A stretch of DNA of 32,000 bases from Breznakia sp. PF5-3. GTDB taxonomy: Bacteria; Bacillota_I; Bacilli_A; Erysipelotrichales; Erysipelotrichaceae. Where the stretch lies: NCBI RefSeq assembly GCF_029504745.1, contig NZ_JAQFIQ010000028.1:1-32000 (forward strand), read 5' to 3'. Below the pieces are notes generated by a model, which worked only from the letters and a program-made list of their open reading frames with translations, made no database searches and had not been told where the DNA came from. This document shows, piece after piece, positions 3,009-29,115 of the stretch (position 1 is the stretch's first letter; every line of letters starts with the position of its first letter). A program made the translations under genes and the position numbers.

Positions 3009-3013
3009 TTATA

Positions 3014-3956: not shown

Positions 3957-3969
3957 AGTCACCCCCAAA

Positions 3970-4697: not shown

Positions 4698-4713
4698 ATA
4701 AACATCACCAACC

Positions 4714-5637: not shown

Positions 5638-5640
5638 ACA

Positions 5641-6807: not shown

Positions 6808-6841
6808 ATATTCTCCTTTCTTTACTTACTATCATAATTTA

Positions 6842-6867
6842 GTCGCTTAAAAGCCTTTTAAGGTTCA
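6842..6867 (-). promoter_or_regulatory. ECF-type promoter candidate P3 (bactofilin-LRR-lepB operon)
   Basis: On the - strand: TGAACC-TTAAAAGGCTTTTAAG-CGAC (16-nt spacer), ending 34 nt upstream of ATG 6807. Same geometry as the motif upstream of the sigma gene. Confidence 0.55.
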
Positions 6868-7023
6868 CTATTTCCAGTATAAAGTGTATTTTTACCATCA
6901 TTTACCCGAAAAAGCTATGTTCTTTCATGCGAGTGCCCCATAATTATATTAGTCTCTATATACATTATAATATAATTTAAATTATTCGCCCAATCATATT
7001 ATCATTTATATTATAGGTTTTAA

Positions 7024-7059
7024 TATAAAAATATGCAAATACTATTCGTATTTGCATAT
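7024..7059 (-). terminator. rho-independent terminator after the 446-aa gene
   Basis: Perfect 12-bp stem ATATGCAAATAC/GTATTTGCATAT (7031-7059) with a 5-nt loop, followed on the - strand by TTTTTATATT. Confidence 0.8.
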
Positions 7060-7116
7060 CGTAATTTTTCCAAAATATAATATATGTTCAATAAATCATG
7101 TTTCATTTATAAATTT

Positions 7117-8457: not shown

Positions 8458-8520
8458 AATTTCTTCATTTCCCTCGCTTTCATATGTATTTTTGGATTTA
8501 TTTACATATATCAAAAGTAT

Positions 8521-8546
8521 GTCGCGCAAGTCCTAAAAAAGGTTTT
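8521..8546 (-). promoter_or_regulatory. weaker ECF-type promoter candidate P4 (446-aa gene)
   Basis: On the - strand: AAAACC-TTTTTTAGGACTTGCG-CGAC, followed by ATAC. It shares GACTTnnGCGnCATAC with the sigma-gene promoter, but its -35 is AAAACC rather than TGAACC. Confidence 0.35.
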
Positions 8547-9209: not shown

Positions 9210-9234
9210 AAAGGAATATCTAAGATATTCCTTT
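9210..9234 (-). other. perfect 11-bp hairpin just after the giant gene, without a U-tract
   Basis: AAAGGAATATC-TAA-GATATTCCTTT. On the - strand it is followed by GCTTCCTAATG, so there is no T-run. Confidence 0.5.
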
Positions 9235-9245: not shown

Positions 9246-12200
9246 CTATTCTTCCTCTTCTTTTTTTCTTTTCACTAAGTAAATCACACTCATAAACGAT
9301 ATGATTCCCATTGCGAATAAACTATTTAAATTCGTATCATCACCTGTTGTTACAGCTGTACTTGGTTTTGATACAGTTGGAGGTGTTACAGATGGTTTTC
9401 TTCCTGGTGTTACAGTCACCTTAATCACTGTTGCATATTCTACACCTTCATGTTCAACACTCAACTTCACATCGTATACTCCACCAAGAATTGTACTTCC
9501 CTTAACTACTCTTAAGTGTTCTTGGTGTACAGCTATCGATTCTTTTGTTGGTGCCAATGCCCTAGTTTTTGAATTTATGATTACATCTGCTTCTGACAAT
9601 TCTAATACTTTTGCTTCATTCATGTTTGATGCTTCAGCATGTGAAATTGTGAAATCTTTCGCTGTAATATCTAGAGCTGTTTTCGTTACATTTACATTCA
9701 CTGTAACTTTTGTTGTTGGTTCTTTCACTACATGGAATGTTACTTGATATACACCAGCTTCTCCTATTACATTATGACTCTCTACTTCAACTTTTGCGCT
9801 TGAAAGATCTTTCTTCAACCATGCCTCTGCTTCTGTTAAAGCAATCAATTGATCATTTGTAATTGTTTCTGCTGTGTGTGAGTTTATTGTAATATGGTTT
9901 GCCCCAATATAATATTTATCACCTTTCACAATCACATCTTTTGCTTTTACCTTAATTTTAATAGTTGCTTTTGTATCTTTTTCTTCATCCACATAGAATG
10001 TTGCTGTGTAATCACCTTCAGCCGCCTTAAAGTCTGTTGTTTCCAACTTCACTGTTCCTGCACTCATATCTTTACGTTTGAATGCTTCCGCTTTTGATAA
10101 CTCAATTAATTTTGTATTGTCACTAATTGCTTCTGCTTCTGCTAGTGTCATCACTAAATTGTTGGCAACAATTGTATATTCATCTCCGTGTTCGATAACA
10201 TTTCCATCTTTTACTTTGATTTTGATTGTTGCTTTTGTATCTTTTTCTTCATCCACATAGAATGTTGCTGTGTAGTCACCTTCAGCGGCCTTGAAGTTTG
10301 TTGTTTCAAGTTTTACAGTTCCAGCACTCATATCTTTACGTTTGAATGCTTCTGCTTTTGATAATTTAATTAACTCATTGTTATTTTTAATTGCTTCAGC
10401 TTCTTCCAATGTCATTACTAAATTGTTAGCTCCGATTGTGTATTCATCTCCGTGCTCAATTACATCTTTATCGATTACTTTGATTTTAATCGTTGCTTTT
10501 GTTGCTTTTTCTTCATCTACATAGAACGTTGCTGTATAGTCACCCTTAGCCGCCTTGAAGTTTGTTGTTTCCAACTTCACTGTTCCAGCACTCATATCTT
10601 TGCGCTTGAATGCTTCTGCTTTTGATAACTCAATTAATTTCGTATTGTCACTAATCGCTTTCGCTTCATCTAGTGTCATTACTAAGTTGTTTGCTCCGAT
10701 TGTGTATTCATCTCCGTGCTCGATTACATCTTTATCGATTACTTTGATTTTAATCGTTGCTTTTGTTGCTTTTTCTTCATCTACATAGAATGTTGCTGTG
10801 TAGTCACCTTTCGCTGCTGTAAAGTTTGTTGTTTCAAGTTTTACTGTTCCAGCACTCATATCATCACGATTAATTGCTACAGCTTTTGATAACTCAATTA
10901 ATTTCGTATTGTCAGTGATTGCTTTTGCTTCATCTAATGTCATTACTAAGTTGTTTGCTCCGATTGTATACTTATCTCCATGTTCGATTACATCTTTATC
11001 GATTACTTTGATTTTAATCGTTGCTTTTGTATCTTTTTCTTCATCTACATAGAATGTCGCTGTATAGTTACCTTTCGCTGCTGTAAAGTTTGTTGTTTCC
11101 AGCTTCACTGTTCCCACACTCATATCTTTACGTTTGAATGCTTCTGCTTTTGATAACTCAATCAGTTTTGTATTGTCACTAATTGCTTTCGCTTCATCTA
11201 GTGTCATTACTAAGTTGTTTGCAACTAGTGTATATTTATCTCCGTGTTCAATTACATTTCCATCTTTTACTTTGATCTTAATAGTCACTTTCGTTGCTTT
11301 TTCTTCATCTACATAGAATGTTGCTGTATAGTCACCCTTAGCTGCTGTAAAGTCTGTTGTTTCAAGTTTTACTGTTCCTGCACTCATATCTTTACGTTTG
11401 AATGCTTCTGCTTTTGATAACTCAATCAGTTTCGTATTGTCACTAATTGCTTTCGCTTCATCTAGTGTCATTACTAAGTTGTTTGCTCCAATTGTATACT
11501 TATCTCCGTGTTCGATTACATCTTTATCGATTACTTTGATTTTTACTGTTACTTTCGTTGCTTTTTCTTCATCTACATAGAATGTTGCTGTGTAATCACC
11601 CTTAGCTGCTGTAAAGTTTGTTGTTTCAAGTTTTACTGTTCCTTTGCTTAGGTCTTCTAACTTCCATGCTTCTGCTTTCGCTTTTTTAACTAACTCACTG
11701 TTGTCTGTCATCGCTTTCGCTTCATCGACTGTCATTACAATGTTGCTAGCTACTAGTGTATACTTGTCGCCTTCTTTGATTACATCGCCATCTACTACTT
11801 TCGCGATTGCTTTCACTTCATCTTTTGGATCCGTTGCTGCTTTCACTTTGATAACTACTTCGTAATCTTTGACTTCTGCTTTATATCCACCATTGTCTTT
11901 CACCATCAAGTCTGCACTTGGTACTGGCAATCCTGTTGCGATTGACCATGCTTTTGCTTCTGTCTTTTCTAAGATTTCAGCGTCTGTTCCGGTTACATCA
12001 TCTTTCAAGATTACATAGTTATGTAAGTCATATGCATAATCTTTTCCTACATACAATCCTACTGCTACTACTCTTGATTTCTTAACTGTATTGTAGTCAC
12101 TGTCAGTTACACTGTATTCTACTACATACATTCCTTTTTTCGATGTATCTACAGTTCCTGTTGATATTACTTTACTTGTAATATCTTTATCTTCTTCATC

Positions 12201-15200
12201 GTATGCACTAACTCCATGTTTGTAGTCATATGCATCCCCAATATTTAAACTCATGAATTCTGGATTCACTGTTAATACTGGCGCATTTCCGTTCACTACT
12301 TTTACAGCTACACGAACTTCTGTTGCTGGTTCTTCTGCTACATAGAATGTAACATAGTATGTTCCTACGGTTCCTTCAACATTGTGTGTTTTCACTTTTA
12401 CTGTTCCTGCACTCATGTCTTTACGTTTGAACGCTTCTGCTTTTGTAAGATCAATCAATTGATCATTAGTAATACTTTCGGCAACACTTCTTGTGATTTC
12501 AATGTTGTTAGCTCCGATTGTATACTTATCTCCATGTTCGATTACATCTTTATCGATTACTTTGATTTTAATCGTTGCTTTTGTATCTTTTTCTTCATCT
12601 ACATAGAATGTCGCTGTGTAGTCACCTTTTGCTGCTGTAAAGTTTGTTGTTTCAAGTTTTACTGTTCCTGCACTCATATCATCACGATTAATTGCTACAG
12701 CTTTTGATAACTCAATCAGTTTTGTGTTGTCAGTGATTGCTTTCGCTTCATCGACTGTCATTACTAAGTTGTTAGCTCCGATTGTATACTTATCTCCGTG
12801 TTCGATTACATCTTTATCGATTACTTTGATTTTAATCGCTGCTTTCGTTGCTTTTTCTTCATCTACATAGAATGTTGCTGTGTAGTCTCCATTAGCTGCC
12901 TTGAAGTTTGTTGTTTCAAGTTTTACTGTTCCCACACTCATATCTTTACGTTTGAATGCTTCTGCTTTCGATAACTCAATCAGTTTTGTATTGTCACTAA
13001 CCGCTTTCGCTTCATCTAGTGTCATTACTAAGTTGTTGGCAACGATTGTATATTCATCTCCATGTTCAATGACATTTCCATCTTTTACTTTGATCTTAAT
13101 TGTTACTTTCGTCGCTTTTTCTTCATCCACATAGAATGTTGCTGTGTAGTCACCTTCTGCTGCCTTGAAGTTTGTTGTTTCAAGCTTTACTGTTCCTGCA
13201 CTCATATCTTTACGTTTGAATGCTTCTGCTTTCGATAACTCAATCAGTTTTGTATTGTCACTAACCGCTTTCGCTTCATCTAGTGTCATTACTAAGTTGT
13301 TTGCTCCGATTGTATACTTATCTCCATGTTCGATTACATCTTTATCGATTACTTTGATTTTTACTGTTACTTTCGTTGCTTTTTCTTCATCCACATAGAA
13401 TGTTGCTGTATAGTCTCCCTTAGCTGCTGTAAAGTTTGTTGTTTCAAGTTTTACTGTTCCTTTGCTTAGGTCTTCTAACTTCCATGCTTCCGCTTTCGAT
13501 AACTCAATCAGTTTTGTATTGTCACTAACCGCTTTCGCTTCATCGACTGTCATTACAATGTTGCTAGCTACTAGTGTATACTTGTCTCCTTCTTTGATTA
13601 CATCGCCATCTACTACTTTTGCGATTGCTTTCACTTCATCTTTTGGATCCGTTGCCGCTTTCACTTTGATAACTACTTCATAATCTTTGACTTCTGCCTT
13701 GTATCCACCATTGTCTTTCACCATCAAGTCTGCACTTGGTACTGGCAATCCTGTTGCGATTGACCATGCTTTTGCTTCTGTCTTTTCTAAGATTTCTGCA
13801 TCTGTTCCTGTTACATCATCTTTCAAGATTACATAGTTGTGTAAATCATATGCATAATCTTTTCCTACATACAATCCTACTGCTACTACTCTTGATTTTT
13901 TAACTGTATTGTAGTCACTGTCAGTTACACTGTATTCTACTACATACATTCCTTTTTTCGATGTATCAACAGTTCCTGTTGATATTACTTTACTTGTAAT
14001 ATCTTTATCTTCTTCATCATATGCACTAACTCCATGTTTGTAGTCATATGTATCTCCAATATTTAAACTCATGAATTCTGGATTCACTGTTAATACTGGT
14101 GCATTTCCGTTCACTACTTTTACAGATACACGAACTTCTGTTGCTGGTTCTTCTGCTACATAGAATGTAACATAGTATGTTCCTACGGTTCCTTCAACAT
14201 TGTGTGTTTTCACTTTTACTGTTCCTACACTCATGTCTTTACGTTTGAACGCTTCTGCTTTTGTAAGATCAATCAATTGATCATTAGTAATACTTTCAGC
14301 TACACTTCTTGTAATTTCAATGTTGTTTGCTCCGATTGTATACTTATCTCCGTGCTCGATTACATCTTTATCGATTACTTTAATTTTAATCGTTGCTTTC
14401 GTTGCTTTTTCTTCATCTACATAGAATGTCGCTGTGTAGTCACCCTTAGCTGCTGTAAAGTTTGTTGTTTCAAGCTTTACTGTTCCTGCACTCATGTCTT
14501 TACGTTTGAATGCTTCTGCTTTTGATAACTCAATCAGTTTTGTGTTGTCACTAATTGCTTTCGCTTCATCTAGTGTCATTACTAAGTTGTTTGCTCCGAT
14601 TGTATACTTATCTCCGTGTTCGATTACATCTTTATCGATTACTTTGATTTTAATCGTTGCTTTTGTTGCTTTTTCTTCATCTACATAGAATGTTGCTGTA
14701 TAGTCACCCTTAGCTGCGGCAAAGTTTGTTGTTTCAAGTTTTACTGTTCCTTTGCTTAGGTCTTCTAACTTCCATGCTTCTGCTTTCGCTTTGCCTACTA
14801 ACTCACTGTTGTCTGTCATCGCTTTCGCTTCATCGACTGTCATTACAATGTTGCTAGCTACTAGTGTATACTTGTCACCTTCTTTGATTACATCGCCATC
14901 TACTACTTTCGCAATTGCTTTCACTTCATCTTTTGGATCTGTTGCTGCTTTTGCTTTGATAACTACTTCGTAATCTTTGACTTCTGCTTTATATCCACCA
15001 TTGTCTTTTACCATGATTTCCGATTGTGCAAGTTTTAAACCTGTTTTCGTTGACCATGCTTCTACTTCTGTCTTTTCTAAGATTTCTGCGTCTGTTCCTG
15101 TTACATCATCTTTCAAGATTACATAGTTGTGTAAATCATATGCATAATCTTTTCCTACATACAATCCTACTGCTACTACTCTTGATTTTTTAACTATATT

Positions 15201-18200
15201 GTAGTCACTGTCAGTTACACTGTATTCTACTACATACATTCCTTTTTTCGATGTATCTACAGTTCCTGTTGATATTACTTTACTTGTAATATCTTTATCT
15301 TCTTCATCGTATGCACTAACTCCATATTTGTAGTCATATGCATCTCCAATATTTAAACTCATGAATTCTGGATTCACTGTTAATACTGGTGCATTTCCAT
15401 TAATTACAGTTACTTTAACTTTTACAGTTGTTGATGGATTTTCTTTCACTTGGAAAATAGCATAGTATGAAGTTGAAGTGGTATCAGTTCCGATATTTGC
15501 TTCTTTTACTTCTACTGCTACTGTACTAAAGTCTTTTACTTTCCATCCTTCTGCATTACCCCAATCAATTAAATTATTATTTGTATAATTTTCTGCTTGG
15601 CTTCTTGTAATTGTAATGTTATTTGCTCCAATTGCATAATGTTCTTCTGATGTTAATTCATCTTTTTTCATTACTTTAATTGTAATTGTTGCTTTTGTTG
15701 CTTTTTCTTCATCCACATAGAATGTTGCTGTATAAGTACCTTCAGCTGCCTTGAAATCTGTTGTTTCAAGTTTTACTGTTCCAGCACTCATATCATCACG
15801 ATTAATTGCTACAGCTTTTGATAACTCAATCAGCTTCGTATTGTCAGTGATTGCTTTCGCTTGCTCAACATTCATTACTAAGTTATTAGCTCCGATTGTA
15901 TATTTGCTTCCTGTTTCAATCACATGCTTATCGATTACTTTGATTTTAATCGTTGCTTTCGTTGCTTTTTCTTCATCTACATAGAATGTCGCTGTGTAGT
16001 CACCCTTAGCTGCTGTAAAGTTTGTTGTTTCAAGCTTTACTGTTCCTGCACTCATGTCTTTACGTTTGAATGCTTCTGCTTTTGATAACTCAATCAGTTT
16101 TGTATTGTCACTAATTGCTTTCGCTTCATCTAGTGTCATTACTAAGTTGTTTGCAACTAGTGTATATTTATCTCCGTGTTCAATGACATTTCCATCTTTT
16201 ACTTTGATCTTAATCGTTACTTTCGTCGCTTTTTCTTCATCCACATAGAATGTTGCTGTGTAGTCACCTTCTGCTGCCTTGAAGTTTGTTGTTTCAAGTT
16301 TTACTGTTCCAGCACTCATATCTTTACGTTTGAATGCTTCTGCTTTTGATAACTCAATCAGTTTCGTATTGTCACTAATTGCTTTCGCTTCATCTAGTGT
16401 CATTACTAAGTTGTTTGCTCCAATTGTATACTTATCTCCGTGTTCGATTACATCTTTATCAATTACTTTGATTTTTACTGTTACTTTCGTTGCTTTTTCT
16501 TCATCTACATAGAATGTTGCTGTATAGTCTCCCTTAGCTGCTGTAAAGTTTGTTGTTTCAAGTTTTACTGTTCCTTTGCTTAGGTCTTCTAACTTCCATG
16601 CTTCTGCTTTCGCTTTTTTAACTAACTCACTGTTGTCTGTCATCGCTTTCGCTTCATCGACTGTCATTACAATGTTGCTAGCTACTAGTGTATACTTGTC
16701 GCCTTCTTTGATTACATCGCCATCTACTACTTTCGCGATTGCTTTCACTTCATCTTTTGGATCCGTTGCCGCTTTCACTTTGATAACTACTTCATAATCT
16801 TTGACTTCTGCTTTATATCCACCATTGTCTTTCACCATCAAGTCTGCACTTGGTATTGGCAGTCCTGTTGCGATTGACCATGCTTTTGCTTCTGTCTTTT
16901 CTAAGATTTCAGCATCTGTTCCGGTTACATCATCTTTCAAGATTACATAGTTATGTAAGTCATATGCATAATCTTTTCCTACATACAATCCTACTGCTAC
17001 TACTCTTGATTTCTTAACTGTATTGTAGTCACTGTCAGTTACACTGTATTCTACTACATACATTCCTTTTTTCGATGTATCTACAGTTCCTGTTGATATT
17101 ACTTTACTTGTAATATCCTTATCTTCTTCATCGTATGCACTAACTCCATGTTTGTAGTCATATACATCCCCAATATTTAAACTCATGAATTCTGGATTCA
17201 CTGTTAATACTGGCGCATTTCCGTTCACTACTTTTACAGCTACACGAACTTCTGTTGCTGGTTCTTCTGCTACATAGAATGTAACATAGTATGTTCCTAC
17301 GGTTCCTTCAACATTGTGTGTTTTCACTTTTACAGTTCCTGCACTCATGTCTTTACGTTTGAACGCTTCTGCTTTTGTAAGATCAATCAATTGATCATTA
17401 GTAATACTTTCGGCAACACTTCTTGTGATTTCAATGTTGTTTGCTCCGATTGTATACTTATCTCCATGTTCGATTACATCTTTATCGATTACTTTGATTT
17501 TTACTGTTACTTTCGTTGCTTTTTCTTCATCCACATAGAATGTCGCTGTGTAGTCACCTTTCGCTGCTGTAAAGTTTGTTGTTTCAAGTTTTACTGTTCC
17601 TGCACTCATATCTTTACGTTTGAATGCTTCTGCTTTCGATAACTCAATCAGTTTCGTATTGTCACTAATTGCTTTCGCTTCATCTAGTGTCATTACTAAG
17701 TTATTTGCTCCGATTGTGTATTCATCTCCGTGTTCGATTACATCTTTATCGATTACTTTGATTTTAATCGTTGCCTTTGTTGCTTTTTCTTCATCTACAT
17801 AGAATGTCGCTGTGTAGTCACCTTTCGCTGCTGTAAAGTTTGTTGCTTCAAGTTTTACTGTTCCTGCACTCATGTCTTTACGTTTGAATGCTTCTGCTTT
17901 TGATAACTCAATTAATTTCGTATTGTCACTAACCGCTTTCGCTTCATCTAGTGTCATTACTAAGTTGTTAGCTCCGATTGTATACTTATCTCCGTGTTCG
18001 ATTACATCTTTATCGATTACTTTGATTTTTACTGTTACTTTCGTTGCTTTTTCTTCATCCACATAGAATGTTGCTGTGTAGTCTCCCTTAGCTGCTGTAA
18101 AGTTTGTTGTTTCAAGTTTTACTGTTCCTTTGCTTAGGTCTTCTAACTTCCATGCTTCTGCTTTCGCTTTTTTAACTAACTCATTGTTGTCTGTCATCGC

Positions 18201-21200
18201 TTTCGCTTCATCGACTGTCATTACAATGTTGCTAGCTACTAGTGTATACTTGTCGCCTTCTTTGATTACATCGCCATCTACTACTTTCGCAATTGCTTTC
18301 ACTTCATCTTTTGGATCTGTTGCTGCTTTTGCTTTGATAACTACTTCGTAATCTTTGACTTCTGCTTTATATCCACCATTGTCTTTTACCATGATTTCCG
18401 ATTGTGCAAGTTTTAAACCTGTTTTCGTTGACCATGCTTCTACTTCTGTCTTTTCTAAGATTTCAGCATCTGTTCCGGTTACATCATCTTTCAAGATTAC
18501 ATAGTTATGTAAGTCATATGCATAATCTTTTCCTACATACAATCCTACTGCTACTACTCTTGATTTCTTAACTGTATTGTAGTCACTGTCAGTTACACTG
18601 TATTCTACTACATACATTCCTTTTTTCGATGTATCTACAGTTCCTGTTGATATTACTTTACTTGTAATATCTTTATCTTCTTCATCGTATGCACTAACTC
18701 CATGTTTGTAGTCATATGCATCCCCAATATTTAAACTCATGAATTCTGGATTCACTGTTAATACTGGTGCATTTCCATTAATTACAGTTACTTTAACTTT
18801 TACAGTTGTTGATGGATGTTCTTTCACTTGGTAAACAACATAATAATCTGTTGAAGTAGTATCAGTTCCAATATTCGCTTCTTTCACTTCTACTGCTACT
18901 GTACTAAAGTCTTTTACTTTCCATCCTTCTGCATTACCCCAATTAATTAAATTATCATTTGTATAATTTTCTGCTTGGCTTCTTGTAATTGTAATGTTAT
19001 TTGCTCCAATTGCATAATGATCTTCTGATGTTAATTCATCTTTCTTCATTACTTTAATTGTAATTGTTGCTTTTGTATCTTTTTCTTCATCTACATAGAA
19101 TGTTGCTGTATAAGTACCTTCTGCTGCTTTGAAATCTGTTGTTTCAAGTTTTACTGTTCCTGCACTCATATCATCACGATTAATTGCTACAGCTTTTGAT
19201 AACTCAATCAGTTTTGTGTTGTCAGTGATTGCTTTCGCTTGCTCAACATTCATCACTAAGTTATTAGCTCCGATTGTATATTTGCTACCTGTTTCAATCA
19301 CATGCTTGTCGATTACTTTGATTTTAATCGTTGCTTTTGTTGCTTTTTCTTCATCTACATAGAATATCGCTGTATAGTCACCCTTAGCTGCTGTAAAGTT
19401 TGTTGTTTCAAGTTTTACTGTTCCTGCACTCATGTCTTTACGTTTGAATGCTTCTGCTTTTGATAACTCAATCAGTTTTGTATTGTCACTAATTGCTTTC
19501 GCTTCATCTAGTGTCATTACTAAGTTGTTTGCAACTAGTGTATATTTATCTCCGTGTTCAATGACATTTCCATCTTTTACTTTGATCTTAATAGTTACTT
19601 TCGTTGCTTTTTCTTCATCTACATAGAATGTTGCTGTGTAGTCACCTTCAGCTGCCTTGAAGTTTGTTGTTTCAAGTTTTACTGTTCCAGCACTCATATC
19701 TTTACGTTTGAATGCTTCTGCTTTTGATAACTCAATCAGTTTTGTATTGTCACTAATCGCTTTCGCTTCATCTAGTGTCATTACTAAGTTGTTTGCTCCG
19801 ATTGTATACTTATCTCCGTGTTCGATTACATCTTTATCGATTACTTTGATTTTTACTGTTACTTTCGTTGCTTTTTCTTCATCCACATAGAATGTCGCTG
19901 TATAGTCTCCCTTAGCTGCTGTAAAGTTTGTTGTTTCAAGTTTTACTGTTCCTTTGCTTAGGTCTTCTAACTTCCATGCTTCTGCTTTCGCTTTTTTAAC
20001 TAACTCACTGTTGTCTGTCATCGCTTTCGCTTCATCGACTGTCATTACAATGTTGCTAGCTACTAGTGTATACTTGTCGCCTTCTTTGATTACATCGCCA
20101 TCTACTACTTTCGCGATTGCTTTCACTTCATCTTTTGGATCCGTTGCTGCTTTCACTTTGATAACTACTTCGTAATCTTTGACTTCTGCTTTATATCCAC
20201 CATTGTCTTTCACCATCAAGTCTGCACTTGGTATTGGCAGTCCTGTTGCGATTGACCATGCTTTTGCTTCTGTCTTTTCTAAGATTTCAGCATCTGTTCC
20301 GGTTACATCATCTTTCAAGATTACATAGTTATGTAAGTCATATGCATAATCTTTTCCTACATACAATCCTACTGCTACTACTCTTGATTTCTTAACTGTA
20401 TTGTAGTCACTGTCAGTTACACTGTATTCTACTACATACATTCCTTTTTTCGATGTATCTACAGTTCCTGTTGATATTACTTTACTTGTAATATCTTTAT
20501 CTTCTTCATCATATGCACTAACTCCATGTTTGTAGTCATATGCATCCCCAATATTTAAACTCATGAATTCTGGATTCACTGTTAATACTGGTGCTTTTCC
20601 ATTAATTACGTTTACATCTACCGTTGCTTTTACACTTGGATCTGCATCTACCTTGAAAGTCGCTTTATATAATGATGCAACTCCCTTTACAGTATGTGTA
20701 TCTAAGGATACTGCTACTTCACTACGATCAGATCTCTTCCATCCTTTCGCACCTGTCAACGATTTTAATTCTGTCGCTGCATATGTTGCATTATCTTCGA
20801 TTTTCTTTGCTTCACCTAAGCGAATCTCAATATGGTTTGCTCCTATGATATATTCATCATTTACTTCTACTACATCATATGGTAATACTTCAAAGGTTAC
20901 TTCTTTTGTGATAGTTTCTTCTTTTCCTACACTAAAGACTACCTTATATTCTCCAGCTTCTGCTTTATATCCACCTTTTGATTTAACTTTTACAGGTGTT
21001 TCTGTACCTAAAGATGTATCGATTGCTTTCGCTTTCGCTAAATTAATAAAGTCTTGATCATCTACTACTAATTTAGCATTATCTAACCCGATGATTACAT
21101 CATTTGCACTAATCGTATATAACACTTTTTGAACAATCACTTTCGTTGCTGCTTTAAAAGTAGCATCGTGATAATCTTTTGTTGCTACTGGATTTTTATT

Positions 21201-23771
21201 TCCATTTGCATCTGTTAGGAAAATTTGAACTACATCATTTTCTTTTAATGTTGTTCCTGCAGGGAATGTATAATTCCAAGTATTATCATCATTAATTGTT
21301 CCTTCATTCCCCATTTCAACGCCGTTTAAAGTAACTGTTAATTTTACTGGCTTATCATTATTATGAATAGCATCCAATTCCCATGTTCCTTCTAGCTTAT
21401 TTCCATTTGTATATAATGTGTTTGTTACTGTTACTGGTAATGGAGGTGTTACATCACTTACCGTAACCTTGCCCACTAAAATATCTTCTGCATTCGCAAC
21501 ATGACGCTTTGAAGAAGTTGGATCTTCATCTCCACGCCAAGCTTCCAACACTTCATATGTTGAACCTGGTGTTAAAAATTCATTTAATGGAACTGTATAC
21601 ATCCCACCACGAGGTTCTTCACCATATACTGCTAATCCTGGATTATCATTATCTTTACCAATCGTTTTGGCATAATATGTATTTTGTGTTCCATCTGCTT
21701 TTACTTCTAAAATTTTCACATACACTTCATCTGTCCATGCATCCCTACCATTAAGATCTAAACCTTCTGGTACTCTTGCATGACCAAAAATACTCTTATC
21801 CGCATTTTCTGGGTTTCTCAACTCATCAATTATTGGTGTTGCATTATTTCCACTAATACGTGTATATCCTGCCATTCCTGTACTACCAAATGATGCTGCA
21901 CCACTATTGAAGTCAGGATCTGATGAATTTGCTATTGTAGTAAAGTTTTGACCCGTTAAACTATAGTCAATTAAAACCCAACTTTTCCATGGGTTACCAT
22001 CTACATTAGCTCCTTTTTTCCACACAGCTACATCTGAATTAATAGATTCTAGCTTTGAAGTTGATCCATTTGTTGTTCTAAATACACTTCCTCCACCAGA
22101 ACGGTTGTTTACAAAGTCATAATACAAAATATTTTCGGCATGAAAATCTAGATTTCTACCATTAATTACTGCTGCATCAGCTCCTGCTGTATTACCTTCA
22201 ACAATAAAGATTGCTCCATTTGTTGCATTAATGGTTGCATCAGAAGCATCCATATCCAAAGCACATCCATTTTCTGCAATAATTGATATTGCACTATTTT
22301 TACCATCTACTGAAAACGATGCAGATGATGCTGATTGATATTGAATAGCTTGGTTTCTTGCATCTGAGTTTCCATCCCTTGGTGTTCCATCACCTGCATT
22401 TTGAACTAATACCTGACTACCACCAGATACCTTAAATGCATTTCCATCTCCAAAGAAACGAATCGCTGGTGCGCGACTTCCTTCTTCTTTAACTATCTTT
22501 ACATTCGCTTGATTTGTTACATTAAAAGTTTGGTTACCAACATATCTAAATCGAATTGTTGCACCATAGGTATTATGACCATCTTTTGAGTATAAATTCA
22601 AATTTGATCCAGCACCATCTACGTTAAATTCTCCGCCTCCAGTAACCTGTTGAATAAGAGCTGGCATTGCTCCTTTACTGTTAACCGTTAAGCTTGAGCC
22701 TGAATTTACATAAATCCCTGATGCTTCATTTCCGGCAATCGTTGAACCACAAATAACAACAACTCCACCATCATCTCCACTTGAAGATCCTGTTGATTCA
22801 ATATTTACATGAGAATTATCTTCCACTTTAAATTGAACTCTATTTTGAGTAGTTGAACTTGAATTATTATTAGCAAAAATTGCTTGTTCAGTACCTGTAT
22901 TTATATTTAATGTTGAACCTCCTAATACCTCTAAACCTGTTACTGCTTTTGTACTTGCTACAGGATTTAGACGAATAAGTCCTGCACCAGTATTAGTACT
23001 CAAGTTTACAGTAGCTCCATCTTTAATATATATATAACGTGTATAAATCATTTCATTATAAGTACTTGTTGGCATTAGCCAATTCACTGTACCTGTAAAG
23101 TTAATAACACTGTTTCTTGCCGTTACTAACCTACTGTCACTACTTGATCCATTACTAACATTATGGAAATTAATATTCCAGTTAGCATCATCGGTTTCTG
23201 CAGCAACAACATAATTTGCTCCACTTCTTTGAATCACAATATTTGATAACGTAAATTGTGATGGCGTTGACGCCGTTGCTAACACGAAACTATTTCTTGT
23301 AACGGTTGTAAAATCTAGAGTGAACCCATTACCATCTATTATCAAATTACGATTGACTTCAGGCAAATCATTTGCTGATGCCGTACTACCATCTCTGGTA
23401 ATATGTTTCGTAAATTTAATATGAGAAACATTGCTATCGCTCATAGCAGCTTTTAAAGTAGTCCAATCGCTTACTTCAACTGTTGCTGCTCTTGGTTTCG
23501 CGTCAAAAGTAGAAACATCCTGTGGAGGCGTTTCTTCTTGTTCTGTTTCTTCACTTGTATCTTCTTCTTGAGGCTCTTCTTCAACCTCTGAAGGCTCTTC
23601 TACCTCTTCTTCTGGACTGACATCTTCTGTTATGACATCATCTGCATCAGCAGTTAATAACACATCGCCGACTAAAGATGATACACCTAAAGACGTAAAT
23701 GTCAGTAAAAAACAAAGCATAACTGTGAACAGTGTTTTCTGTTTTTTCCAGAAATTCTTCTTTTTACTCAT
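9246..23771 (-). CDS. giant (4,841 aa) modular cell-surface adhesin-like protein
   Basis: Uninterrupted 14,526-nt ORF with AGGAGGAGGG RBS.
- Signal peptide MSKKKNFWKKQKTLFTVMLCFLLTFTSLGVSSLVG.
- Acidic E/P/T linker.
- About 550 aa rich in N/G/S/T with beta-solenoid-like periodicity (pectate-lyase-like adhesive-domain pattern, e.g. VSDWTTLKAAMSDSNVSHIKF).
- Ig-like region.
- Then 6 DUF5011-like domains interleaved with 88-aa modules.
- Pro-rich stalk PGRKPSVTPPTVSKPS, then AVTTGD, a hydrophobic helix and KRKKEEEE. Confidence 0.95.
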   Translation of the reverse strand: MSKKKNFWKKQKTLFTVMLCFLLTFTSLGVSSLVGDVLLTADADDVITEDVSPEEEVEEPSEVEEEPQEEDTSEETEQEETPPQDVSTFDAKPRAATVEVSDWTTLKAAMSDSNVSHIKFTKHITRDGSTASANDLPEVNRNLIIDGNGFTLDFTTVTRNSFVLATASTPSQFTLSNIVIQRSGANYVVAAETDDANWNINFHNVSNGSSSDSRLVTARNSVINFTGTVNWLMPTSTYNEMIYTRYIYIKDGATVNLSTNTGAGLIRLNPVASTKAVTGLEVLGGSTLNINTGTEQAIFANNNSSSTTQNRVQFKVEDNSHVNIESTGSSSGDDGGVVVICGSTIAGNEASGIYVNSGSSLTVNSKGAMPALIQQVTGGGEFNVDGAGSNLNLYSKDGHNTYGATIRFRYVGNQTFNVTNQANVKIVKEEGSRAPAIRFFGDGNAFKVSGGSQVLVQNAGDGTPRDGNSDARNQAIQYQSASSASFSVDGKNSAISIIAENGCALDMDASDATINATNGAIFIVEGNTAGADAAVINGRNLDFHAENILYYDFVNNRSGGGSVFRTTNGSTSKLESINSDVAVWKKGANVDGNPWKSWVLIDYSLTGQNFTTIANSSDPDFNSGAASFGSTGMAGYTRISGNNATPIIDELRNPENADKSIFGHARVPEGLDLNGRDAWTDEVYVKILEVKADGTQNTYYAKTIGKDNDNPGLAVYGEEPRGGMYTVPLNEFLTPGSTYEVLEAWRGDEDPTSSKRHVANAEDILVGKVTVSDVTPPLPVTVTNTLYTNGNKLEGTWELDAIHNNDKPVKLTVTLNGVEMGNEGTINDDNTWNYTFPAGTTLKENDVVQIFLTDANGNKNPVATKDYHDATFKAATKVIVQKVLYTISANDVIIGLDNAKLVVDDQDFINLAKAKAIDTSLGTETPVKVKSKGGYKAEAGEYKVVFSVGKEETITKEVTFEVLPYDVVEVNDEYIIGANHIEIRLGEAKKIEDNATYAATELKSLTGAKGWKRSDRSEVAVSLDTHTVKGVASLYKATFKVDADPSVKATVDVNVINGKAPVLTVNPEFMSLNIGDAYDYKHGVSAYDEEDKDITSKVISTGTVDTSKKGMYVVEYSVTDSDYNTVKKSRVVAVGLYVGKDYAYDLHNYVILKDDVTGTDAEILEKTEAKAWSIATGLPIPSADLMVKDNGGYKAEVKDYEVVIKVKAATDPKDEVKAIAKVVDGDVIKEGDKYTLVASNIVMTVDEAKAMTDNSELVKKAKAEAWKLEDLSKGTVKLETTNFTAAKGDYTATFYVDEEKATKVTVKIKVIDKDVIEHGDKYTIGANNLVMTLDEAKAISDNTKLIELSKAEAFKRKDMSAGTVKLETTNFKAAEGDYTATFYVDEEKATKVTIKIKVKDGNVIEHGDKYTLVANNLVMTLDEAKAISDNTKLIELSKAEAFKRKDMSAGTVKLETTNFTAAKGDYTAIFYVDEEKATKATIKIKVIDKHVIETGSKYTIGANNLVMNVEQAKAITDNTKLIELSKAVAINRDDMSAGTVKLETTDFKAAEGTYTATFYVDEEKDTKATITIKVMKKDELTSEDHYAIGANNITITRSQAENYTNDNLINWGNAEGWKVKDFSTVAVEVKEANIGTDTTSTDYYVVYQVKEHPSTTVKVKVTVINGNAPVLTVNPEFMSLNIGDAYDYKHGVSAYDEEDKDITSKVISTGTVDTSKKGMYVVEYSVTDSDYNTVKKSRVVAVGLYVGKDYAYDLHNYVILKDDVTGTDAEILEKTEVEAWSTKTGLKLAQSEIMVKDNGGYKAEVKDYEVVIKAKAATDPKDEVKAIAKVVDGDVIKEGDKYTLVASNIVMTVDEAKAMTDNNELVKKAKAEAWKLEDLSKGTVKLETTNFTAAKGDYTATFYVDEEKATKVTVKIKVIDKDVIEHGDKYTIGANNLVMTLDEAKAVSDNTKLIELSKAEAFKRKDMSAGTVKLEATNFTAAKGDYTATFYVDEEKATKATIKIKVIDKDVIEHGDEYTIGANNLVMTLDEAKAISDNTKLIELSKAEAFKRKDMSAGTVKLETTNFTAAKGDYTATFYVDEEKATKVTVKIKVIDKDVIEHGDKYTIGANNIEITRSVAESITNDQLIDLTKAEAFKRKDMSAGTVKVKTHNVEGTVGTYYVTFYVAEEPATEVRVAVKVVNGNAPVLTVNPEFMSLNIGDVYDYKHGVSAYDEEDKDITSKVISTGTVDTSKKGMYVVEYSVTDSDYNTVKKSRVVAVGLYVGKDYAYDLHNYVILKDDVTGTDAEILEKTEAKAWSIATGLPIPSADLMVKDNGGYKAEVKDYEVVIKVKAATDPKDEVKAIAKVVDGDVIKEGDKYTLVASNIVMTVDEAKAMTDNSELVKKAKAEAWKLEDLSKGTVKLETTNFTAAKGDYTATFYVDEEKATKVTVKIKVIDKDVIEHGDKYTIGANNLVMTLDEAKAISDNTKLIELSKAEAFKRKDMSAGTVKLETTNFKAAEGDYTATFYVDEEKATKVTIKIKVKDGNVIEHGDKYTLVANNLVMTLDEAKAISDNTKLIELSKAEAFKRKDMSAGTVKLETTNFTAAKGDYTATFYVDEEKATKATIKIKVIDKHVIETGSKYTIGANNLVMNVEQAKAITDNTKLIELSKAVAINRDDMSAGTVKLETTDFKAAEGTYTATFYVDEEKATKATITIKVMKKDELTSEEHYAIGANNITITRSQAENYTNNNLIDWGNAEGWKVKDFSTVAVEVKEANIGTDTTSTSYYAIFQVKENPSTTVKVKVTVINGNAPVLTVNPEFMSLNIGDAYDYKYGVSAYDEEDKDITSKVISTGTVDTSKKGMYVVEYSVTDSDYNIVKKSRVVAVGLYVGKDYAYDLHNYVILKDDVTGTDAEILEKTEVEAWSTKTGLKLAQSEIMVKDNGGYKAEVKDYEVVIKAKAATDPKDEVKAIAKVVDGDVIKEGDKYTLVASNIVMTVDEAKAMTDNSELVGKAKAEAWKLEDLSKGTVKLETTNFAAAKGDYTATFYVDEEKATKATIKIKVIDKDVIEHGDKYTIGANNLVMTLDEAKAISDNTKLIELSKAEAFKRKDMSAGTVKLETTNFTAAKGDYTATFYVDEEKATKATIKIKVIDKDVIEHGDKYTIGANNIEITRSVAESITNDQLIDLTKAEAFKRKDMSVGTVKVKTHNVEGTVGTYYVTFYVAEEPATEVRVSVKVVNGNAPVLTVNPEFMSLNIGDTYDYKHGVSAYDEEDKDITSKVISTGTVDTSKKGMYVVEYSVTDSDYNTVKKSRVVAVGLYVGKDYAYDLHNYVILKDDVTGTDAEILEKTEAKAWSIATGLPVPSADLMVKDNGGYKAEVKDYEVVIKVKAATDPKDEVKAIAKVVDGDVIKEGDKYTLVASNIVMTVDEAKAVSDNTKLIELSKAEAWKLEDLSKGTVKLETTNFTAAKGDYTATFYVDEEKATKVTVKIKVIDKDVIEHGDKYTIGANNLVMTLDEAKAVSDNTKLIELSKAEAFKRKDMSAGTVKLETTNFKAAEGDYTATFYVDEEKATKVTIKIKVKDGNVIEHGDEYTIVANNLVMTLDEAKAVSDNTKLIELSKAEAFKRKDMSVGTVKLETTNFKAANGDYTATFYVDEEKATKAAIKIKVIDKDVIEHGDKYTIGANNLVMTVDEAKAITDNTKLIELSKAVAINRDDMSAGTVKLETTNFTAAKGDYTATFYVDEEKDTKATIKIKVIDKDVIEHGDKYTIGANNIEITRSVAESITNDQLIDLTKAEAFKRKDMSAGTVKVKTHNVEGTVGTYYVTFYVAEEPATEVRVAVKVVNGNAPVLTVNPEFMSLNIGDAYDYKHGVSAYDEEDKDITSKVISTGTVDTSKKGMYVVEYSVTDSDYNTVKKSRVVAVGLYVGKDYAYDLHNYVILKDDVTGTDAEILEKTEAKAWSIATGLPVPSADLMVKDNGGYKAEVKDYEVVIKVKAATDPKDEVKAIAKVVDGDVIKEGDKYTLVASNIVMTVDEAKAMTDNSELVKKAKAEAWKLEDLSKGTVKLETTNFTAAKGDYTATFYVDEEKATKVTVKIKVIDKDVIEHGDKYTIGANNLVMTLDEAKAISDNTKLIELSKAEAFKRKDMSAGTVKLETTDFTAAKGDYTATFYVDEEKATKVTIKIKVKDGNVIEHGDKYTLVANNLVMTLDEAKAISDNTKLIELSKAEAFKRKDMSVGTVKLETTNFTAAKGNYTATFYVDEEKDTKATIKIKVIDKDVIEHGDKYTIGANNLVMTLDEAKAITDNTKLIELSKAVAINRDDMSAGTVKLETTNFTAAKGDYTATFYVDEEKATKATIKIKVIDKDVIEHGDEYTIGANNLVMTLDEAKAISDNTKLIELSKAEAFKRKDMSAGTVKLETTNFKAAKGDYTATFYVDEEKATKATIKIKVIDKDVIEHGDEYTIGANNLVMTLEEAEAIKNNNELIKLSKAEAFKRKDMSAGTVKLETTNFKAAEGDYTATFYVDEEKDTKATIKIKVKDGNVIEHGDEYTIVANNLVMTLAEAEAISDNTKLIELSKAEAFKRKDMSAGTVKLETTDFKAAEGDYTATFYVDEEKDTKATIKIKVKAKDVIVKGDKYYIGANHITINSHTAETITNDQLIALTEAEAWLKKDLSSAKVEVESHNVIGEAGVYQVTFHVVKEPTTKVTVNVNVTKTALDITAKDFTISHAEASNMNEAKVLELSEADVIINSKTRALAPTKESIAVHQEHLRVVKGSTILGGVYDVKLSVEHEGVEYATVIKVTVTPGRKPSVTPPTVSKPSTAVTTGDDTNLNSLFAMGIISFMSVIYLVKRKKEEEE
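9400..21125 (-). repeat. in-frame coding repeat array: about 39 copies of an 88-aa (264-nt) module plus 6 DUF5011-like domains
   Basis: The canonical module is VIDKDVIEHGDKYTIGANNLVMTLDEAKAISDNTKLIELSKAEAFKRKDMSAGTVKLETTNFTAAKGDYTATFYVDEEKATKVTVKIK (24 close copies, 6 unit-terminal variants, 6 linker variants, 3 flanking divergent copies). DUF5011-like copies are anchored by the EFMSLN Met codons at 20564, 18740, 17186, 15362, 14072 and 12254. Their spacings are 1824, 1554, 1824, 1290 and 1818 nt. Confidence 0.9.
14070..20564 (-). repeat. near-identical higher-order tandem duplication (3,378-nt unit followed by a 3,114-nt unit)
   Basis: Antisense track ORFs at 15751, 16054, 16279 and 16576 are 100% identical in translation to those at 19129, 19432, 19657 and 19954. 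The offset is exactly 3,378 nt. The second unit is shorter by exactly 264 nt, which is one module. Confidence 0.9.
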
Positions 23772-23852
23772 TTAATACCCTCCTCCTATTGGCTTTTATT
23801 CAAGCAAATATCACACATATGAAAAATCAATTTTCATAATGAGTATCGGTAA

Positions 23853-23878
23853 GACGCATAAGTCAAAATTCAGGTTCA
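23853..23878 (-). promoter_or_regulatory. ECF-type promoter candidate P2 (giant adhesin gene)
   Basis: On the - strand: TGAACC-TGAATTTTGACTTATG-CGTC (16-nt spacer), followed by TTAC. Located 25 nt after the LRR-gene stop and about 80 nt upstream of ATG 23771. It shares TGAAC...TGACTTAnGCGTCnTAC with P1. Confidence 0.6.
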
Positions 23879-27759: not shown

Positions 27760-27766
27760 ATTCGCC

Positions 27767-29086: not shown

Positions 29087-29115
29087 AAAGTATCGCCCCC
29101 ATCCACTTCATGTAT

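Follow-up and report, generated by a model that had tools for sequence, protein, structure and literature searches.

Results

A single open reading frame encodes a modular surface protein of 4,841 residues

Positions 9246..23771 on the minus strand of the window (the whole 32,000-nt stretch of Breznakia sp. PF5-3 DNA that was analysed) are occupied, according to the ORF listing, by one open reading frame that starts with ATG, encodes 4,841 aa and contains no stop codon other than the terminal one. The gene accounts for 14,526 of the 32,000 nt (45.4%), and a good Shine-Dalgarno sequence, AGGAGG, lies 8 nt 5' of its ATG. An initial annotation, made from the sequence alone, had given the protein this same length and assigned the gene 45% of the window; translation bears out both, without an internal stop, and the architecture proposed there holds almost to the residue when examined by HMM searches and structure prediction. 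The product, of ~528 kDa and 4,841 aa, is a real surface protein of an insect-gut-type Firmicute, and its parts are as follows, from the N-terminus to the C-terminus.

23643..23771, minus strand: signal peptide region, aa 1-43 (sequence reading and hydropathy)
23520..23642, minus strand: acidic linker, aa 44-84 (51% D+E)
22017..23486, minus strand: predicted beta-helix (beta-solenoid) head, aa ~96-585 (Pfam, AlphaFold2, Foldseek)
21120..21866, minus strand: two to three predicted Ig-like beta-sandwich domains, aa ~636-884 (AlphaFold2, moderate confidence)
20604..21119, minus strand: two divergent modules, modA (aa 885-971) and modB (aa 972-1056) (module HMM)
18780..20603, minus strand: super-unit 1, DUF5011, divergent linker module and 5 modules, aa 1057-1664
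17226..18779, minus strand: super-unit 2, DUF5011, linker module and 4 modules, aa 1665-2182
15402..17225, minus strand: super-unit 3, DUF5011, linker module and 5 modules, aa 2183-2790
14112..15401, minus strand: super-unit 4, DUF5011, linker module and 3 modules, aa 2791-3220
12294..14111, minus strand: super-unit 5, DUF5011, linker module and 5 modules, aa 3221-3826
9669..12293, minus strand: super-unit 6, DUF5011, linker module and 8 modules, aa 3827-4701
9402..9668, minus strand: last module, divergent, aa 4702-4790 (module profile)
9249..9401, minus strand: Pro-rich spacer and candidate sorting signal with AVTTGD, a hydrophobic segment (aa 4815-4833) and KRKKEEEE (TIGR01167, hydropathy)

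Strongly hydrophobic 19-aa windows are found at aa 12-39 and aa 4815-4833 only. The first of these lies in the candidate signal peptide, in which a basic n-region and a hydrophobic core are followed by A-D-A ahead of the acidic stretch. The candidate signal peptide, the acidic linker and the N/G/S/T-rich region that had been read from the translation are all recovered, the last with an N/G/S/T content of 42% across aa 96-640 versus 27% protein-wide.

The head is predicted to be a beta-helix

A Pfam scan places PF20585 (Pectate_lyase_5), a family described as a putative pectate lyase-like adhesive domain, on aa 97-209 (58.2 bits, cutoff 24.3). AlphaFold2 models aa ~96-585 as a series of short strands, for the most part with pLDDT above 80 and with low-confidence stretches too. 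Foldseek matches of the head model include the binding regions of the Lactobacillus reuteri serine-rich repeat proteins (SRRP-BR), 5ny0 (second in the list, E 3.6e-4) and 5nxk (TMt 0.55 for 5nxk_C), which rank best among the beta-helical entries on that list; the phage tailspike 6nw9 is one of the weak matches. The resemblance to SRRP-BR is modest (TMt 0.34-0.55, identity 13-15%), and we note that multi-domain models used as Foldseek queries give low global TM scores. At the sequence level, a profile search of solved structures matched the head to none of the beta-helices, and at E <= 0.01 the giant protein matched no Pfam family of catalytic pectate lyases or glycosidases. Distant taxa have retained the head, with invariant motifs and 30-40% identity, which argues that it is the selected functional part of the protein.

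Between head and stalk, the AlphaFold2 strands of aa ~636-884 have pLDDT of about 40-85. The first Foldseek match of this region is the Bap C region 7dm0 (E 1e-5), followed by the BIg domains of SiiE, and a profile match to 7dm0_A was also obtained (E 1.8e-4). The beta-solenoid head of the initial annotation is supported by the PF20585 match, the AlphaFold2 beta-helix and the Foldseek resemblance to SRRP-BR, and its two Ig-like stretches correspond, with moderate confidence, to the two to three domains modelled here.

The stalk is built from super-units of DUF5011 domains and an 88-aa module

Six matches to PF16403 (Bact_surface_Ig-like, formerly DUF5011; 208.9 bits, cutoff 27) begin at aa 1057, 1665, 2183, 2791, 3221 and 3827, and these domains are true members of that family. 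They are followed by 5, 4, 5, 3, 5 and 8 canonical in-register copies of an 88-aa module, 30 in all. Weaker copies comprise six "linker" copies and one at the C-terminus, the latter of a type also found twice in the neighbouring 907-aa protein, while modA (37.5 bits) and modB (68.1 bits) are clear matches to the module HMM 5' of the super-units; a profile built on diverse copies gives a total of 39. Six DUF5011-like domains and about 39 modules, grouped in just this way, had been proposed at the outset. The 86-aa linker proposed with them is likewise present six times but is not a separate type: its predicted fold is that of the 88-aa module, and with its profile match it is better described as a divergent copy of that module.

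The module repeats are distinct coding copies, neither noise nor simple duplicates. Across all 30 in-register copies the median pairwise nucleotide identity is 78%, and 24 canonical modules give a dN/dS of 0.16 at a median dS of 0.64. At the scale of whole super-units the similarity can be far higher, with super-units 1 and 3 being 97.2% identical over 1,824 nt.

The AlphaFold2 model of aa 1057-1406 (DUF5011, linker and two modules; pLDDT 94.3, pTM 0.83) consists of four beta-sandwiches with short strands between them; for the 88-aa module the prediction, of high confidence, is an Ig-like sandwich that carries a short helical insert. In Foldseek, the stalk matches tandem Ig-like arrays of surface proteins, namely SbsB, Sap, InlK, cadherins, RTX adhesin repeats, Rib and Big_3. 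The module is distantly related to DUF5011 (hhalign E 4e-5 over the full length, probability 69%): it shares its strand order, and in its C-terminal half the pattern G-x-Y-x-V-x-F/Y-x-V ... V-x-V, with DUF5011 and Big_3 (PF07523) domains such as 2KPN of Bacillus cereus and ZmpB (7JS4) of Clostridium perfringens. Unlike them, it has two short helices in place of the loop from strand 2 to strand 3, and it is missed by the PF16403 and PF07523 models, the former giving no match to a single module even at E <= 1.

Scans of the whole protein, of its homologues and of single modules placed the module in no Pfam or NCBIfam family. The summed weak matches to GBS_Bsp-like, Semenogelin, B1, DUF1775 and Ribophorin_II_2nd came without any individual matching stretch, and we rejected them as repeat-amplified noise. 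An exhaustive search of representatives with the module profile found 1,151 protein clusters, many with giant members; at least 34 proteins of more than 4,000 aa are among the best-scoring module-family representatives that passed the filter. The identical profile found nothing in a word-indexed database of 5.8 billion proteins, and since the exhaustive search recovered so many clusters, we attribute this null to a failure of sensitivity rather than to rarity. Over 1,332 copies, only hydrophobic core positions, Gly and Tyr are conserved, as would be expected of a structural stalk domain, and an isopeptide or catalytic signature was ruled out on the same grounds.

The C-terminal tail resembles an LPXTG-type sorting signal

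When the tail is scanned in isolation, the TIGR01167 LPXTG_anchor model matches with 19.9 bits, above its cutoff of 15.9; it is not listed in the NCBIfam scan of the whole protein. The tail has the hydrophobic segment and basic C-terminus of such signals, but the literal L-P-x-T-G pentapeptide is replaced by AVTTG(D), which has no L-P. The Pro-rich, sorting-like tail of the initial annotation is accordingly LPXTG-type by HMM and departs from the type in these two residues. Orthologues in Breznakia carry G-V-S-T-G-D and have in common the motif V-[ST]-T-G-D-x-T-N, the spacing that separates it from the helix, and a basic C-terminal end; one of them is named an LPXTG-motif cell wall-anchored protein by NCBI. 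The tails of neighbouring surface proteins do not reach the TIGR01167 cutoff (VVSAGD, no match; KINTGD, 11.7 versus 15.9). Family members carry canonical LPXTG or x-x-T-G-D signals at their C-termini, and many have plain transmembrane tails that lack any T-G motif. No sortase was found by Pfam among the nine neighbouring ORFs.

Relatives in Breznakia and beyond

An uncharacterised 5,054-aa protein already deposited for Breznakia pachnodae (WP_370872564.1 / MDQ0362440.1; P0166), encoded on a 275-kb contig and annotated, automatically only, as "immunoglobulin-like domain-containing protein", is the orthologue of the giant protein. The two share a near-identical signal peptide, the acidic linker, the beta-helix head, modA and modB, super-units of DUF5011, linker and modules with 39 module matches, and a Pro-rich tail with V-S-T-G-D, a transmembrane helix and a basic end. 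They differ in how the modules are apportioned, with eight super-units in B. pachnodae (2, 2, 2, 2, 2, 4, 5 and 9 modules) and six here (5, 4, 5, 3, 5 and 8). Two partial Breznakia sp. proteins (P0022, P0037) have stalks ~50% identical to that of the giant protein. In a Coprobacillaceae MAG (L002) the contig ends within the repeats of the relative, whose gene comes straight after a homologue of the lipoprotein gene. Relatives of the organism inhabit the guts of plant-fibre-digesting insects.

The gene lies in a conserved surface-protein cluster

The initial annotation had called the giant gene the obvious effector of an island, a description that the locus does not bear out. No tRNA was found in the window by a tRNA scan and nothing by an Rfam scan, no mobile-element Pfam family (integrase, transposase) was found among the nine neighbouring ORFs scanned, and GC content is 0.32-0.37 within the gene versus 0.28-0.36 in the flanks, with no clear shift. 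The neighbouring genes are kept together in Erysipelotrichaceae bacterium MTC7 (L003), and the locus has the look of a conserved cluster of surface-protein genes on the chromosome, not of a mobile island. Two features 5' of the gene may bear on its regulation.

23849..23878, minus strand: ECF-type promoter-like motif TGAACC-N16-CGTCTTAC (pattern search)
27767..29086, minus strand: candidate regulator, an ECF-type sigma factor with one transmembrane helix (aa 254-272) and a C-terminal ectodomain

The motif lies ~78 nt 5' of the ATG of the giant gene. The sigma protein matches the Pfam families Sigma70_r2, r4_2 and Sigma70_ECF, its transmembrane helix being identified by hydropathy, and its gene is preceded by a motif (29112-29141) that matches that of the giant gene. 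The pattern GAAC-N15-18-CGTC, fixed a priori, matches only before these two genes; it is the only independent test, since refinement of the "strict" pattern drew on the same sites that this pattern then describes. The motif is also kept 5' of the orthologue in L003 and was not found 5' of that in L002. Past the giant gene, the hairpin at 9210-9234 has no T-run on the coding strand, and we rejected it as an intrinsic terminator; the downstream lipoprotein gene may therefore be co-transcribed with the giant gene.

Discussion

We consider it likely that the giant protein is a Sec-exported, surface-anchored fibrillar adhesin and that the scheme of head, stalk, anchor and regulation outlined here is right as a whole. 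Fibrillar adhesins, as described by Monzon, Bateman and colleagues (PMC8286594, PMC9210967), combine an anchor, a stalk of tandem repeats and a terminal adhesive domain, and the giant protein has the same plan. Its stalk consists of 39 modules and six PF16403 domains that AlphaFold2 renders as consecutive beta-sandwiches; its putative adhesive domain scores well above the PF20585 cutoff, with an SRRP-BR-like predicted fold in support; and its anchor exceeds the TIGR01167 cutoff and has a transmembrane segment and a basic tail. The protein differs from catalogued fibrillar adhesins in that its stalk module lies outside Pfam and NCBIfam. Although large, it is essentially ordinary within this known class, and our findings leave current understanding standing; its adhesive function is suggested by resemblance in family and fold.

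The signal peptide would be cleaved off on export and the LPXTG-type signal (AVTTGD, hydrophobic helix, KRKK) would retain the protein at the membrane, after which a sortase would most probably join it to peptidoglycan. The rod would comprise ~47 beta-sandwich domains (39 modules, six DUF5011 domains and the two to three further Ig-like domains). Ig-like domains are typically 3.5-4.5 nm long, which would give the rod a length of roughly 170-210 nm and display the ~490-residue N-terminal beta-helix far off the wall. By analogy to L. reuteri SRRP-BR, its best beta-helical match in Foldseek, the head would recognise a surface ligand, either a polysaccharide or another polyanion, probably in an arthropod gut; it probably works as SRRP-BR does, with a polyanionic glycan bound along the solenoid face. 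SRRP-BR is known to bind polygalacturonic acid and epithelium (PMC5866549), and SRRP-like beta-solenoids are a recognised class of adhesive domain in fibrillar adhesins (PMC9210967). Transcription probably begins at the ECF-type promoter, and the conserved motif common to both genes suggests that the sigma factor tethered to the membrane, whose gene lies two genes upstream, may recognise this promoter. The repeats probably originated by duplication of whole super-units, DUF5011 domain and modules together, and are kept by purifying selection.

Two parts of this account are open to a different reading without loss of the whole. It is possible, if rather unlikely, that the protein is not linked by sortase and that its C-terminal helix is simply a membrane tail anchor to which the T-G-D is incidental. 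The missing L and P, the lack of a sortase among the nine neighbouring ORFs, the sub-threshold tails of the neighbouring surface proteins and the plain transmembrane tails of many family members would all fit this possibility; against it, the giant tail exceeds a curated LPXTG_anchor cutoff, its motif, spacing and basic end are kept in Breznakia orthologues, and NCBI names one of these a wall-anchored protein. We think it unlikely, somewhat more so than tail anchoring, that the architecture is right but that the repeat count and the length of 4,841 aa arise from collapse or expansion of near-identical repeats during assembly. The gene holds 290 exact repeat pairs of at least 40 nt, the longest of 325 nt, apart from the near-identity of super-units 1 and 3, and all repeat offsets are in frame, so that a wrong join would stay invisible. 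The exact protein is recorded for one assembly only (GCA_029504715.1; a literature search with the accession gave no matches), and the Coprobacillaceae contig does break off inside its repeats. However, most module copies are too distinct in sequence (median 78% nucleotide identity, dS 0.64) to be duplicates made by an assembler, the gene sits on a single contig with unique sequence at either side, and the B. pachnodae orthologue also totals 39 modules. The copy number could nonetheless reflect mis-assembly and is provisional.

The function of the protein might also be construed differently. Like proteins of the Bap/Esp/SasG/Aap type, it might serve in biofilm formation or auto-aggregation, with homophilic stalk repeats joining cells and the head in a secondary role. 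The repeats are indeed tandem and highly similar, the number of super-units differs between the two Breznakia species, both Foldseek and profile searches liken the Ig-like domains that follow the head to the Bap C region, and L. reuteri SRRP is required for biofilm formation (PMC5866549). We nevertheless regard this as improbable, given that no Bap, G5, E-repeat or Rib family is among the Pfam matches and that the head, conserved in distant taxa, seems to be the selected part, although biofilm and head-adhesion roles may coexist. More improbable still is a surface-tethered polysaccharide-degrading enzyme, that is, a beta-helix lyase or hydrolase borne on a long stalk. The right-handed beta-helix, the pectate-lyase-like fold to which the Pfam name points, the tailspike match and the plant-fibre-digesting hosts of the organism's relatives would be in keeping with an enzyme, but the Pfam scan matched no catalytic family at E <= 0.01, the best beta-helical Foldseek matches are non-enzymatic binding regions, and PF20585 is itself described as an adhesive domain.

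The fibrillar-adhesin assignment invites comparison with two known groups. The L. reuteri SRRP binding region (5NY0 / 5NXK) is, as the head here is predicted to be, a right-handed beta-solenoid adhesive domain towards the N-terminus of a protein anchored in a Gram-positive wall. The giant protein, by contrast, has no serine-rich repeats in its translation and no KxYKxGKxW signal peptide, its stalk consists of folded Ig-like domains rather than glycosylated serine-rich repeats, and no SecA2, SecY2, Asp or Gtf family was found by Pfam among the nine neighbouring ORFs scanned; with an identity of only 13-15%, it falls outside the SRRP family. The giant repeat adhesins of Gram-positive cocci (SasG/Aap, Ebh and the Rib/alpha-like proteins) likewise form long rods of near-identical tandem repeats with sortase-type anchoring, and their copy number differs among strains, a feature to which the giant protein may be likened, but their repeat folds (G5-E, FIVAR-GA and Rib) are unrelated to its stalk, and Pfam matches none of them in it.

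On a broader view, insect-gut Erysipelotrichales may possess a conserved and self-contained "surface appendage" module with the giant adhesin as its main cargo; we judge this composite proposal quite unlikely to hold in all its parts, though less so than either alternative function. The membrane-tethered ECF sigma factor, with its Ig-like ectodomain as sensor, would activate three transcription units through the TGAACC-N16-CG(T/A)C promoter, with elements at 29112, 23849 and 6838. One unit would comprise the sigma gene and those of two accessory surface proteins. Another would encode the giant adhesin, which might share its transcript with the lipoprotein and a beta-helix protein of 470 aa. 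The remaining one would combine a bactofilin anchored in the membrane, an LRR protein of the BspA type and a dedicated type I signal peptidase. Positioning of the adhesin at a defined cell site, and its processing, would fall to the bactofilin and the peptidase, and, as a separate part of the proposal, the helix-bearing 88-aa Ig-like module would be an uncatalogued family of more than 1,100 protein clusters.

An adhesin of 0.5 MDa extending some 0.2 µm out from the wall would likely be a main determinant of where the bacterium positions itself in the gut of its host, which is probably an arthropod. The conserved neighbourhood of sigma factor, bactofilin and signal peptidase, together with the common motif, makes a directly testable regulon for expression of the adhesin. 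We also note that a model of its own for the 88-aa module, which is abundant and absent from Pfam and NCBIfam, would better annotate thousands of giant proteins that are now labelled no further than "DUF5011" or "hypothetical".

Anatomy of the giant gene

We have found that the giant gene is a single minus-strand ORF (9246..23771) of 4,841 aa that takes up 45.4% of the window, begins with an ATG preceded by a strong Shine-Dalgarno sequence, and is free of the internal stops that the initial annotation had regarded as a possible mark of an assembly artefact. An identical 4,841-aa product is called on contig JAQFIO010000027.1 (assembly GCA_029504715.1), nearly all of which corresponds to the window. 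A Pfam search recovered the domains that had been proposed by eye:

aa 97-209: PF20585 Pectate_lyase_5, putative pectate lyase-like adhesive domain
starts at aa 1057, 1665, 2183, 2791, 3221 and 3827: PF16403 Bact_surface_Ig-like (formerly DUF5011), six copies

An HMM made from the 88-aa unit of the protein detected 30 in-register modules in groups of 5, 4, 5, 3, 5 and 8. Upstream of the first DUF5011 domain it found two further clear copies (aa 885 and 972), and it matched the six 'linker' segments and the final segment ahead of the tail more weakly; a profile from diverse copies raised the total to 39. These are exactly the counts of the initial annotation, which read a real gene correctly and with care; its acidic linker (Asp+Glu make up 51% of aa 44-84) and N/G/S/T-rich region (42% of aa 96-640) are likewise borne out by composition. 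Strong hydrophobicity is confined to two windows, the signal peptide, through which the protein would be exported, and aa 4815-4833.

Predicted structure of head and stalk

In the head model (aa 85-884, pLDDT 75), short strands follow one another in a long series over about aa 96-585, and two or three beta-sandwiches of lower confidence come after them. In Foldseek searches the helix of the head matches the binding regions of L. reuteri SRRP (5NY0; 5NXK, TMt 0.55), and the sandwiches after it match the Bap C region and SiiE BIg domains; a profile search also found Bap C (E 1.8e-4), in agreement with the structural result.

We modelled part of the stalk (aa 1057-1406; DUF5011, 'linker' and two modules) in AlphaFold2 with an alignment of orthologous super-units, and all four units are predicted to be beta-sandwiches (pLDDT 94.3, pTM 0.83). 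Strand order is alike in the module and DUF5011, but in the module strands 2 and 3 are separated by two short helices. The 86-aa segment that had been described as a linker has the element order of the module and is therefore better regarded as a divergent module. The stalk model matches tandem Ig-like arrays of surface proteins as well as Big_3 (2KPN, TMt 0.74; Foldseek), and in profile-profile comparison the module aligns with DUF5011 over nearly its full length (E 4e-5). A PDB profile search with the module matched only the C-terminal half of ZmpB and Big_3 Ig-like domains, and no Pfam family covers the module in any of the nine homologues scanned. Across 1,332 distinct modules only core hydrophobic positions and Ala8, Gly58, Tyr60 and Val80 are conserved, a pattern that marks a structural domain. 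With about 47 domains at 3.5-4.5 nm each, the protein would form a long rod.

Relatives of the head and the module

A search with the head alone returned few proteins: a partial protein, 68% identical and broken off inside the repeats, from a Coprobacillaceae MAG, and others at 35-38% identity with C-terminal halves of other kinds. By genome scan the head family occurs in Erysipelotrichaceae bacterium MTC7, Bacillus australimaris, Lacticaseibacillus brantae, many termite-gut Coriobacteriia and Eggerthellaceae MAGs, and the insect-associated enterococci E. termitis, E. spodopteracolus, E. entomosocium and E. innesii. We note that the family is strikingly concentrated in insect- and termite-gut bacteria, Breznakia relatives included (loci L002-L025). 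This host distribution hints that the head might bind an arthropod-gut ligand.

The profile of the module matched 1,151 clusters (50% identity) when the threshold was set at E <= 1e-3, and 149 when it was set at E <= 1e-30. Among them are many giants, 4,000-7,440 aa in length and matched in 20-49 stretches each. Named members include proteins of Breznakia, Bacilli, Clostridia, Family XIII, Coriobacteriia and Actinomycetes, annotated as no more than 'DUF5011 domain-containing' or 'immunoglobulin-like'. The same profile that yielded the 1,151 clusters in an exhaustive search found nothing in a word-indexed protein search, which calls for caution in word-indexed searching with short repeat-domain queries. 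The nearest full-length relative, WP_370872564.1 of Breznakia pachnodae (5,054 aa, on a 275-kb contig), shares the signal peptide, head, tail and the two divergent modules modA and modB that precede the first DUF5011 domain, and it too has 39 module matches; its super-units follow another plan, there being eight of them, with 2, 2, 2, 2, 2, 4, 5 and 9 modules.

Age and copy number of the repeats

Nucleotide identity among all 30 in-register modules has a median of 78% (range 36-99%), and the 24 canonical modules have a dN/dS of 0.16 at a median dS of 0.64; the copies are thus old, distinct and under purifying selection. First modules of different super-units are 89-99% identical to one another, the terminal modules fall into three types, and between super-units 1 and 3 identity reaches 97.2% across 1,824 nt; judged by the pattern of identities, the unit of duplication is the whole super-unit. 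Any repeat join in the gene would stay in frame. Because exact repeats reach 325 nt and two of the super-units are so similar, the number of super-units cannot be taken as proven before long reads are available.

Probable cell-surface anchoring and adhesin class

Scanned alone, the last 61 residues score 19.9 bits against TIGR01167 (LPXTG_anchor, NCBIfam; cutoff 15.9), but the pentapeptide is AVTTG, and the similar tails of two neighbouring proteins fall below the cutoff, so that sortase linkage is likely rather than certain. Breznakia orthologues carry GVSTGD at this position, one of them being named an LPXTG-motif protein by NCBI, and the best members of the family end in canonical LPXTG, x-x-T-G-D variants or a plain TM segment. 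The two neighbours (23904-26627 and 4714-5637, both minus strand) have VVSAGD and KINTGD, respectively, in front of a C-terminal TM helix and basic tail. Together with AVTTGD these share an x-x-(T/A)-G-D motif that may be a lineage-specific degenerate sortase signal.

In operational terms, a fibrillar adhesin is a protein with an anchor to the cell surface, a stalk of repeats and an adhesive domain at its end (PMC8286594, PMC9210967). The giant protein fits this definition, with a putative anchor, a repeat stalk and, at its end, an adhesive domain that is of the SRRP-like beta-solenoid class. Its head probably works, by analogy, like that of SRRP; the protein lacks Ser-rich repeats, however, and is therefore not an SRRP, and no accessory Sec genes were found by Pfam among nine neighbouring ORFs. 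It shares with SasG/Aap a rod of near-identical repeats, although the repeat fold is unrelated. The gene is thus of a known kind, with a deposited orthologue, and the novelty is modest: an uncatalogued stalk module, which is a helix-bearing derivative of the DUF5011/Big_3 fold, and a conserved surface-protein cluster that is apparently sigma-controlled.

A conserved surface-protein cluster

The giant gene is fourth in a series on the minus strand:

27767-29086, minus: ECF-type sigma factor fused to a TM helix and ectodomain
second, minus: Flg_new/InlB-B-repeat TM protein
23904-26627, minus: LRR and DUF5011 protein with two modules of C-terminal type
9246..23771, minus: giant gene
fifth, minus: lipoprotein
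7117-8529, minus: secreted beta-helix-like protein, 470 aa
5641-6807, minus: membrane-anchored bactofilin
eighth, minus: BspA-type LRR protein
ninth, minus: signal peptidase I

In MTC7 one strand carries bactofilin, BspA, signal peptidase I, sigma, Flg_new, LRR-Ig and giant genes (locus L003, 1890-9610). Compared with the window (4128-8529; 23904-29086), the block from bactofilin through BspA-LRR to signal peptidase I and the block from sigma to giant are joined in the opposite order; the two blocks are thus conserved but permuted. Between them the window adds the lipoprotein and the 470-aa protein. The description of this region as an island finds no support, because the window has no tRNA or Rfam match and no clear GC shift, and Pfam found no mobile-element family among the nine neighbouring ORFs scanned.

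Upstream of the giant gene lies TGAACC-N16-CGTCTTAC, one of only two window sites of the generic ECF pattern GAAC-N15-18-CGTC (0.88 matches expected in the whole window); the other is correctly oriented and lies 26 nt ahead of the sigma gene. The bactofilin gene is preceded by a third site that differs slightly (CGAC). The refined motif, TGAAC(C/T)-N16-CG(T/A)C(T/A)(T/A)A, occurs as follows:

29112-29141, minus: ECF-type promoter-like motif close upstream of the sigma gene
23849-23878, minus: ECF-type promoter-like motif close upstream of the giant gene
6838-6867, minus: ECF-type promoter-like motif close upstream of the bactofilin gene
L003 1871-1900 and 9614-9643: same motif ahead of the bactofilin and giant orthologues in MTC7

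This motif was fitted to its own sites, and the tests of it are the first generic search and the cross-species conservation only. The arrangement suggests that the sigma, giant and bactofilin genes head three transcription units of one regulon, in which expression of the giant gene would depend on the sigma factor.

We also note several features of the neighbouring genes. In the sigma protein (439 aa; 59% identity to its L003 homologue), ECF regions 2 and 4 (aa ~20-185) are fused to a single TM helix (aa 254-272) and, at the C-terminus, to an ectodomain of ~165 aa that is rich in beta structure; the protein effectively amounts to a sigma/anti-sigma sensor in one polypeptide. The bactofilin has an N-terminal membrane anchor (aa 1-40), a long low-complexity middle and PF04519 at aa 299-374, and its gene apparently shares an operon with those for a surface LRR protein and a dedicated type I signal peptidase. 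The 907-aa ORF at 23904-26627 contains LRR_4, one DUF5011 domain and two C-terminal modules of the giant's last-module family; it is 891 aa in the GenBank record, and since an ORF beginning at the listed TTG shares 59 nt with the upstream gene, the true start is probably an internal ATG (MRYKQNF...). The 470-aa protein matches Cthe_2159 (carbohydrate-binding beta-helix) weakly (21 bits, below cutoff) and may be a second, small beta-helix surface protein of the cluster.

Upstream of the cluster (29553-31973, minus) are three tandem ORFs, two of ~283 aa and a third, near the window end, listed as 228 aa; 29553-30407 clearly matches the DegV family, and by sequence the others resemble DegV paralogues. 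Lastly, judged by ORF translations alone, 187-3968 seems to encode a CopA-type copper ATPase and a CsoR-like repressor on the plus strand and, on the minus strand, rubrerythrin-like and Fur/PerR-like proteins; the last two ORFs as listed share 68 nt, so that the rubrerythrin start is probably a downstream ATG.
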